Part shown: positions 513 through 48,618 of the stretch, piece after piece
Position numbering within the stretch: position 1 is the first letter of the stretch
Layout: every line of letters starts with the position of its first letter
From: Eledone cirrhosa
Lineage: Eukaryota
Assembly: GCA_964016885.1 (NCBI GenBank)
Contig: OZ024742.1
Span: 38,564,001-38,628,000, forward strand
Length of the DNA: 64,000 nucleotides
Direction of reading: 5' to 3'
Made by a program: the position numbers and the translations under genes
Notes under the pieces: generated by a model
Database searches by the model: none
What the model was told of the DNA's origin: nothing
What the model saw: only the letters and a program-made list of their open reading frames with translations

Positions 513-37327
<36,815 letters not shown>

Positions 37328-47583: not shown

Positions 47584-47653
<70 letters not shown>

Positions 47654-47683
47654 AGATCACAAGATGGTTAAAGGAGTTCCATG

Positions 47684-47754
47684 TATTTTATTATGCGCAT
47701 TTCAAAAACAAACATCATCATGCAATAATATTTGTGTTTTCATCAGATAAAACA
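47684..47754 (-). ncRNA. Minimal type I hammerhead ribozyme (intact core), left arm of fold-back element 2
   Basis: Reverse complement of 47851-47921. Confidence 0.83.
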
Positions 47755-47850
47755 GGAGAACATGATATGAAGGGTAAAAAACACTTGTGGATAGTGCAGT
47801 TTTAAATCAACAATCCACAAGTGTTTTTTAGCCTTCATATCATGTTCTCC

Positions 47851-47921
47851 TGTTTTATCTGATGAAAACACAAATATTATTGCATGATGATGTTTGTTTT
47901 TGAAATGCGCATAATAAAATA
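47851..47921 (+). ncRNA. Minimal type I hammerhead ribozyme (intact core), right arm of fold-back element 2
   Basis: Stem I TGTTTTAT (47851-58) / ATAAAATA (47914-21); core CTGATGA (47859-65); long stem II 47866-47901; GAAA (47902-05); palindromic stem III ATGCGCAT (47905-12); cleavage triplet AUA ending at 47913. Confidence 0.85.
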
Positions 47922-48151
47922 CATGGAACTCCTTTAACCATCTTTTGATCTTATATTATGTATACTCCAGTCCTACAAACTGTAGAGTGCTTCTTATCCG
48001 ATATCTGCATTGCTTTATTGTACTACAATAAAACTCACCTCCTACATATATATATATATATATATATGGAAAGTTATATTTAAATTATTGGGTTACAACT
48101 AGTAAATATTTATAACTGATATAAAAGCACTCAACAATAAAACTCACCTCC

Positions 48152-48190
<39 letters not shown>

Positions 48191-48317
48191 AAAGTTATAT
48201 TTAAATTGTTGGGTTACAACTAGTAAATATTTATAACTGATATAAAAGCACTCAACAAGTATTTGGAGTATATTTACGATATTAAATAAATGGAAACTAT
48301 ATCTATAAAACCATATT

Positions 48318-48383
48318 TATTTCATTATATATATTTCAGGGATATCATATTAACAATATGTTATGCCTTCCTCAGACAAAATA
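48318..48383 (-). ncRNA. Minimal type I hammerhead ribozyme, left arm of fold-back element 3
   Basis: Reverse complement of 48481-48546. Confidence 0.8.
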
Positions 48384-48480
48384 CAATATAGACAGTTTTA
48401 TAGATAAATCAACTTTTTCAAATACAAGTCGATGTTGAACGGTATGTCAAATCTATTTATCTATAAAACTGTCTATATTG

Positions 48481-48546
48481 TATTTTGTCTGAGGAAGGCA
48501 TAACATATTGTTAATATGATATCCCTGAAATATATATAATGAAATA
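48481..48546 (+). ncRNA. Minimal type I hammerhead ribozyme (intact core), right arm of fold-back element 3
   Basis: Stem I TATTTTGT / ATGAAATA (two GU pairs); core CTGAGGA (48489-95); stem II AGGCATAACATATT-GTT-AATATGATATCCCT; GAAA 48527-30; palindrome ATATATAT; AUA triplet ending at 48538. Confidence 0.8.
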
Positions 48547-48587
48547 AATATGGTTTTATAGATATAGTTTCCATTTATTTAATATCG

Positions 48588-48618
<31 letters not shown>

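Follow-up and report, generated by a model that had tools for sequence, protein, structure and literature searches.

The element at positions 47649-48046 of the window, as we call the whole 64,000-nt stretch of Eledone cirrhosa DNA analysed here, is with a probability of roughly 0.7 a truncated head-to-head insertion into a (TA)n microsatellite, whose two arms would have been reverse-transcribed from uncut, capped sense RNA at both ends of the cut target and whose hammerhead is predicted to be masked. Its protein motifs leave little doubt that the parent is a Hydra-clade Penelope-like retrotransposon. Both clade and insertion form have been described before; the family is new. A preliminary description of this DNA had rightly seen a hammerhead and a recent insertion; it missed that they form the end of a Penelope-like retroelement (PLE).

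Layout of the insertion and its hammerhead motifs

The element proper lies between the target microsatellite, (TA)32, on its left (47585-47648) and (TA)10 on its right (48047-48066), the latter common to the tail end of a neighbouring sister element; a target-site duplication is unreadable. The span first proposed, 47641-48046, keeps its right end, and its left end moves to 47646-47649, because 47641-47648 belongs to the (TA)n run. The two arms (47641-47795 and 47810-47964) stand 14 nt apart and are as near-identical as had been claimed: they are 97% complementary over 155 nt, with four mismatches, one of them in the TA-like outer end.

The tail-less inverted arm occupies 47649-47812 on the minus strand. 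Its outer end, 43-46 nt beyond the cleavage site, corresponds to the short end of the family, and its inner end lies 121 nt upstream of that site, 3 nt short of the putative transcription start. On the plus strand, the sense arm begins 104 nt upstream of the cleavage site with the pseudo-LTR core (47810-47959) and goes on into a one-sided tail (47960-48046), about 90 nt without counterpart on the left. The tail spans the interval between the family's two fixed 3' ends; in full copies its sequence continues into the leader of a frame for reverse transcriptase (RT) and endonuclease. At the inversion junction (47796-47812; like both flanks, assigned to neither strand), the 14-nt 'loop' is the left arm's extra upstream reach. 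The ACA at 47810-47812 fits both arms if the source had the family's A variant, and many different joints were seen at 47812 in four runs of contigs, of unknown kind. The open reading frames listed between 44 and 52 kb of the window are two short ones.

The element and its neighbour stand tail to tail within one microsatellite, and about 110-120 nt are duplicated in tandem there (48025-48256), across the element's tail end, the TA run and the neighbour's tail end, with the short overlap ACAA. Elsewhere the window holds a tRNA-like match (24150-24207) and many dispersed repeats of 85-300 nt (families D2, D9 and D15), likely SINE families.

A type I hammerhead motif spans 47851-47921 on the plus strand, with cleavage predicted after 47913. 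The full core claimed for it is present (CTGATGA 47859-47865, GAAA 47902-47905, H17 = A47913), as is the mirrored core on the minus strand (motif 47684-47754; C3 47746, H17 47692, cleavage predicted after 47692), so that the type I core CUGANGA, GAAA and UH occurs on both strands. Stem I (47851-47858/47914-47921) indeed has eight contiguous pairs, one of them G-U. Stem II (47866-47901), put at about 15 bp, consists of 3 + 12 pairs flanking a C-U mismatch, with G-U in three; its core-closing pair is A-U. The palindrome at 47905-47912 of the plus strand reads ATGCGCAT.

A hammerhead descriptor matched the window four times, in this element and at 48269-48595, each on both strands. In 200 doublet shuffles the same descriptor gave a mean of 0.005 matches, and 1 of the 200 had a match; chance as the origin of the core is excluded. 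Rfam matched no hammerhead here, either at gathering score or at E up to 10; its miRNA matches lie below gathering score and reflect the long hairpin. That the hammerhead is genuine in kind is supported. As regards the stem III of the preliminary description, the palindrome exists and the stable monomer hairpin does not: folded alone, the motif is predicted to form stems I and II, and stem III, with 2 bp and a GCGC loop, to cost +2.9 kcal/mol at a pair probability of 0.001. By these fold predictions a monomer has no stable stem III, and the palindrome fits a dimer.

A young family of the Hydra clade

An own-genome search with 47810-48046 gave 56 matches from 40 scored candidates. Over 237 nt, the right arm and tail match a copy on a different contig without a single difference (100%), which bears out the recent insertion. 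A 24-mer across the cleavage site has 18,367 exact matches (9,201 + 9,166), its control none. In longer copies the arm runs into an RT-endonuclease frame of 800 aa; one locus (L034) carries, in order, arm and tail, frame, 3' region and second arm, and tandem units repeat with periods of 3,896 and 3,893 nt. Among the 143 copies scored in a protein search, out of 30,134 candidates and all 95-100% identical, at least 44 hold an open frame of 821 aa, or 800 aa from a conserved Met. Identity among five intact frames is 98.3-99.4%, and a tandem pair is identical. Three loci (L095, L097 and L099) are head-to-tail multimers with intact frames and joints without TA remnant; the two identical frames of L095 fit copying from circular or multimeric RNA.

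The single frame combines, by motif, an RT (YRDD) with a C-terminal GIY-YIG-type endonuclease (IY..YFG). It has an RWK-like motif (RWT) and DKT in place of DKG, where its relatives have RWK and DKT or close variants, and in addition a linker with CNCRIKNKC (CxCx5C), CNLC (CxxC) before a conserved E and CLH (CxH) after a conserved N. Craig et al. 2021 define the Hydra clade by these motifs, together with (TA)n insertion and hammerheads (PMC8557442; here and below we cite the accessible part of each source). TA flanks occur in the window and at most loci, and a pseudo-LTR hammerhead is present as in that clade, Hydra-1_Obim and Penelope-13_HM included. The frame has 15 homologues at 31-38% identity; a PF26215 label occurs among homologues. 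For the frame and 12 relatives (13 aligned proteins), neither RT nor GIY-YIG was matched in Pfam, and four fragments yielded nothing but a sub-threshold match to Peptidase_C54.

The family departs from the clade as described in several respects. Its unit measures about 3.9 kb, owing to a repeat-rich 3' region, whereas Hydra elements are generally shorter than 3 kb, which the paper gives as a tendency and not as a strict rule; its tail has about 90 nt instead of the typical 30-40; and an Asn/Pro-rich stretch of about 70 aa precedes the linker (PMC8557442). This insert, also rich in Thr (residues ~575-650 of the frame at L048:1114-3513), is absent from the 12 aligned relatives and reminiscent of the Asn-rich inserts in rotifer Penelope elements. 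Hydra-1_Obim is listed in the supplement of Craig et al. with a different hammerhead (PMC8557442); ours has a 15-bp stem II and an even-length perfect palindrome. A repeat survey of Octopus vulgaris reports recently active Penelope families and, in its accessible part, mentions neither hammerheads nor Hydra (PMC13282606).

The hammerhead recurs in distant relatives. Out of 79 metagenome loci with related frames we dropped 23 with less than 150 nt after the frame; within 600 nt after the frame, near the 3' end as in the clade, a sense hammerhead is found in 29 of the 56 kept, against 1/56 for the antisense and 1/56 for the coding control. Judged from these sequences, the hammerhead is a genuine and conserved component of such elements.

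Within the genome we compared 110 distinct motifs, selected by a pattern with fixed core; they are related copies and not independent events. All four bases occur at N7. Stem II positions 2, 3, 5, 6, 8 and 9 show A-U/G-C or C-G/U-A swaps and are paired in 94-109 of the 110, while stem I shows wobble variation only; stems I and II of type I, with compensatory change, are found across these 110 related motifs. The palindrome of helix III keeps its self-complementarity where TGCGCA gives way to TATATA or TATGTA. Stem II position 4 (47869/47898 in the window), three pairs above the core, is never paired: it is C-U or C-C in 105/110, across families, and may make a tertiary contact with a bulged stem I.

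With the metazoan PLE hammerheads of Cervera and De la Pena 2014 these motifs have in common the type I topology, a long helix II and a palindromic helix III suited to a dimer (PMC4209133). They differ in the unpaired stem II position 4 (C-Y in 105/110) and in the 10.1-11.1 pair, which is A-U in 95/110 motifs, without a bulged base after A9; those authors call G-C at the core-closing pair of stem II highly conserved (PMC4209133).

Elements 1 and 3 of the window belong to sister families, tied to related frames (36-81% identity). Element 3 (48067-48595), of a sister Hydra-type family, has a complete core on both arms, with CTGAGGA and a ATATATAT palindrome; its arms are 99% alike, and it is as intact as the element under study (Element 2), with a weaker predicted dimer. 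Element 1 (9130-9574), of a third sister family, lacks U16.1 in both arms and lies beside an extended (GA)n run; the initiator-like A of the family is precisely where its left arm stops.

Origin of the inverted arms

Among the first 100 24-mer matches on one contig (C1, first 27 Mb), neighbours within 6 kb faced outward in 29 cases, inward in 1 and stood in tandem in 4. Of the 29 outward-facing pairs, 27 combine a short end with a tailed one (pair L231 is probably not a true pair). The window and these 27 pairs have the form of a complex insertion of EN+ PLEs, an inverted 5'-truncated copy with a one-sided tail, which is the standard PLE layout (PMC8557442, PMC3846280, PMC2377424). It is known from the Hydra clade itself, in Penelope-13_HM among others (PMC8557442).

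A self-propagating non-autonomous unit (MITE-like, foldback or retrozyme-like), moving as a fixed 400-bp palindrome, might account for the 10 of the 29 pairs that come near the window's size, with spacings of 217-246 nt against 216, and for the few loci that have one junction in common. We hold it to be highly improbable: junctions and arm lengths vary among the copies, the longest arms measuring several kb and including whole reading frames, and private variants are common to the two arms of a locus. Nor is there the tandem array of short units that defines non-LTR retrozymes. The latter also have a type I hammerhead from a PLE pseudo-LTR and a short copy without protein, but theirs are head-to-tail tandem units, each with a hammerhead and with the motifs on one strand (bioRxiv 10.64898/2026.07.22.740005); the single inverted insertion of the window was rejected as a member of that class.

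Averaged over 10 loci, the two arms of one locus show 1.1 substitutions per 140 nt (2 in the window); between loci the figure is 7.3. This likeness indicates that both arms came from one source at insertion, and the arm homogenisation considered in the preliminary description becomes unneeded. The 27 pairs are also informative in their upstream reach: the tail-less arm extends farther in 18, the tailed arm in 4, and the two are equal in 5 (p = 0.004). The window has the geometry of the 18.

Arkhipova et al. 2013 favoured self-priming with an antisense template, without settling the question. The inverted arm of the same element would then be made by self-priming or fold-back on antisense RNA, or on the first cDNA, centred on CATATG. 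This is the published reading of palindromic head-to-head junctions, and it suits both the near-identity of the arms within a locus and the perfect palindromic joins at CATATG in 6 of 30 C-type loci. It does not suit the arm lengths. The 18 pairs with a longer tail-less arm are not producible by a tail-primed cDNA folding on itself, and a short-primed cDNA folding back has no tail available to copy. Two cDNAs, one per target end, fit the arm-length data.

The inner ends of the arms bear on the same question. They cluster at 120-126 nt upstream of the cleavage site, and a sharp 5' end lies at 124 nt. Across the genome, the base before ATATGTTG departs from the parent in 4,579 arms, and none of 30 inspected continues into parent sequence; it is the parent C in 7,479, of which 30 were inspected and 7 also end at that point. 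About 6,300 of 12,058 arms, or about half, would accordingly stop at one base. The context, TTCATA with A as +1, fits the human initiator consensus BBCA+1BW (PMC5287114). By eye, at least 4 of 20 loci in each of the sister families have arms whose ends coincide with TTCACT or GTCACT or fall slightly within, at distances of 125 and 137-138 nt upstream from the respective cleavage sites. A splice or trans-splice acceptor at the hot spot was rejected, as no AG precedes it.

At joins to TA runs, G follows TATATATA in 105 of 679 cases, where the parent base is C and background runs have 2.8% (5.0% at most; p ~1e-45). Untemplated G in L1 and SVA has been attributed to copying of the cap (PMC3287187). 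Six of 20 inspected G loci are paired arms with AT filler and not plain TA flanks. Among all non-parent ends G has a share of 44/100, with G before ATA in 5 of 11 non-C partner sites; this share is not decisive, because microhomology can give up to 45%. The 5' end sits in the 6-bp palindrome CATATG, which could by itself favour joins. Neither arm of the window reaches the start, one falling short by 3 nt and the other by about 20 nt, and neither carries a G. We infer start site, cap and cleavage from genomic DNA. In the literature searched, mostly outside subscription journals and in its accessible parts, neither a G derived from the cap nor a hot spot at the start site turned up for PLEs. At five loci (L367, L372, L373, L376 and L380), start-site joins often have untemplated or slipped AT and GATATAT repeats between the arms, which suggests addition by the RT or by repair.

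Several of these ends count further against fold-back on antisense RNA or first cDNA. This one base is the endpoint of some 680 arms that abut TA runs or AT filler, for the most part without a partner palindrome (40 loci inspected); the extra G and the initiator context indicate a sense 5' end; and the family of Element 1 ends at the non-palindromic TTC/ACT in at least 4 of 20 loci, by eye. We therefore consider such a fold-back unlikely, although it retains more weight than the fixed unit.

Arm ends do not pile up at the cleavage site: we estimate ~62 there, against 45 at the control and ~6,300 at the start. Non-parent bases number 186 at the cleavage site and 225 at a control 3 nt away, and true ends among those inspected were 10/30 and 6/30 (p = 0.38). 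The inserted RNA was thus mostly uncut. That the ribozyme never cuts cannot be shown in this way, because the fossils record only RNA used for insertion.

The reading we prefer, two-ended reverse transcription of sense RNA, would proceed as follows. The element's protein would cut (TA)n, and either target DNA end would serve as primer within the RNA leader, using one of two internal sites. The family shows two fixed 3' ends, one per arm, separated by 90 nt. Each cDNA would then grow upstream past the uncut hammerhead; it would either terminate early or reach the capped 5' end of the RNA and run off, in which case C would be added opposite the cap. The two cDNA ends would be joined via a few bases of microhomology. 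The hammerhead would belong to the parent's RNA cycle, and its cutting would likely need a second copy, through the 8-bp palindromic helix III, or the element's protein.

Related systems offer parallels. In vitro, Poseidon of Anolis carolinensis (PAc; Frangieh et al. 2024) has both strands extended, and two RT start sites make the tail (PMC11167929). As in our family, two fixed 3' ends define the tail, targets are AT-rich, and the hammerhead is uncut in the RNA used for insertion. PAc belongs to another clade; here, both ends lie upstream of the start codon, and the accessible part of that paper neither ties inverted arms to two-ended priming nor maps a capped 5' end (PMC11167929). LINE-1 twin priming likewise has both target ends priming cDNA on RNA, with microhomology end-joining, but its second priming takes place at a variable internal site and leaves the 3' end unduplicated (PMC11702581); in the present family the hammerhead region is duplicated because both arms start at fixed sites 90 nt apart.

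Predicted activity of the hammerhead and significance

The preliminary description named this element the best candidate for an active ribozyme in the window. 'Best' holds for the palindrome, which gives the strongest predicted dimer helix of the window's three elements: two-molecule pairing via AUGCGCAU is predicted at -10.5 kcal/mol, against -3.2 kcal/mol for ATATATAT. 'Active' does not hold up, and neither does 'pair', for the two motifs lie on opposite strands and are never in one RNA.

In RNA read through the plus strand the antisense arm precedes the motif. Such RNA is predicted to fold into a single long hairpin of about -242 kcal/mol, in which the hammerhead stem pairs have a sampled probability of 0.0; the minus strand gives the same hairpin. 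Even the right arm folded alone has a stem I probability of about 0.015; for the leader of L034 the value is 0.3-0.4. By these predictions the hammerhead at this locus would be masked by the complementary arm, and an active ribozyme here is very doubtful. The L034 leader measures 336 nt from the putative start to the frame (L034:5021-5357) and contains 10 upstream AUGs, most of them within the hammerhead; cleavage would take off the cap and seven upstream AUGs.

An active ribozyme cassette might arise if transcription began inside the junction, or if two transcripts paired as a dimer, and the hammerheads were thereby freed. The core is complete, stem II and palindrome show compensatory changes across sister families, the predicted self-duplex is strong, and since Penelope promoters can be internal (PMC2377424), a head-to-head stub might fire both ways. 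Against such a cassette, which we judge very unlikely, stand the hairpin of the read-through RNA, the low stem I probability of the right arm and the start base, absent from both arms here. Metazoan PLE hammerheads of this sort, moreover, gave no cleavage as monomers and low cleavage as dimers (PMC4209133), and the motif of Anolis requires protein for cutting, while insertion can do without the motif (PMC11167929).

The hammerhead pair itself is ordinary for PLEs: dual motifs on opposite strands, 100-700 bp apart, have already been reported (PMC4209133). Read-through of a stub would give long double-stranded RNA, likely a silencing trigger. What the stubs may add, and we lean towards this view, is a fossil read-out of Penelope integration: a capped start at one base, an uncut sense template, and two-ended priming at two fixed sites. 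If true, this read-out would decide between a sense and an antisense template, a choice left undecided in 2013, and one reaction would account for both inverted pseudo-LTRs and one-sided tails. The family, young, with many intact frames and more than 18,000 arms, offers a natural test bed for the open points of the literature: how inverted pseudo-LTRs and tails form, and what role the hammerhead has if the inserted RNA is uncut.
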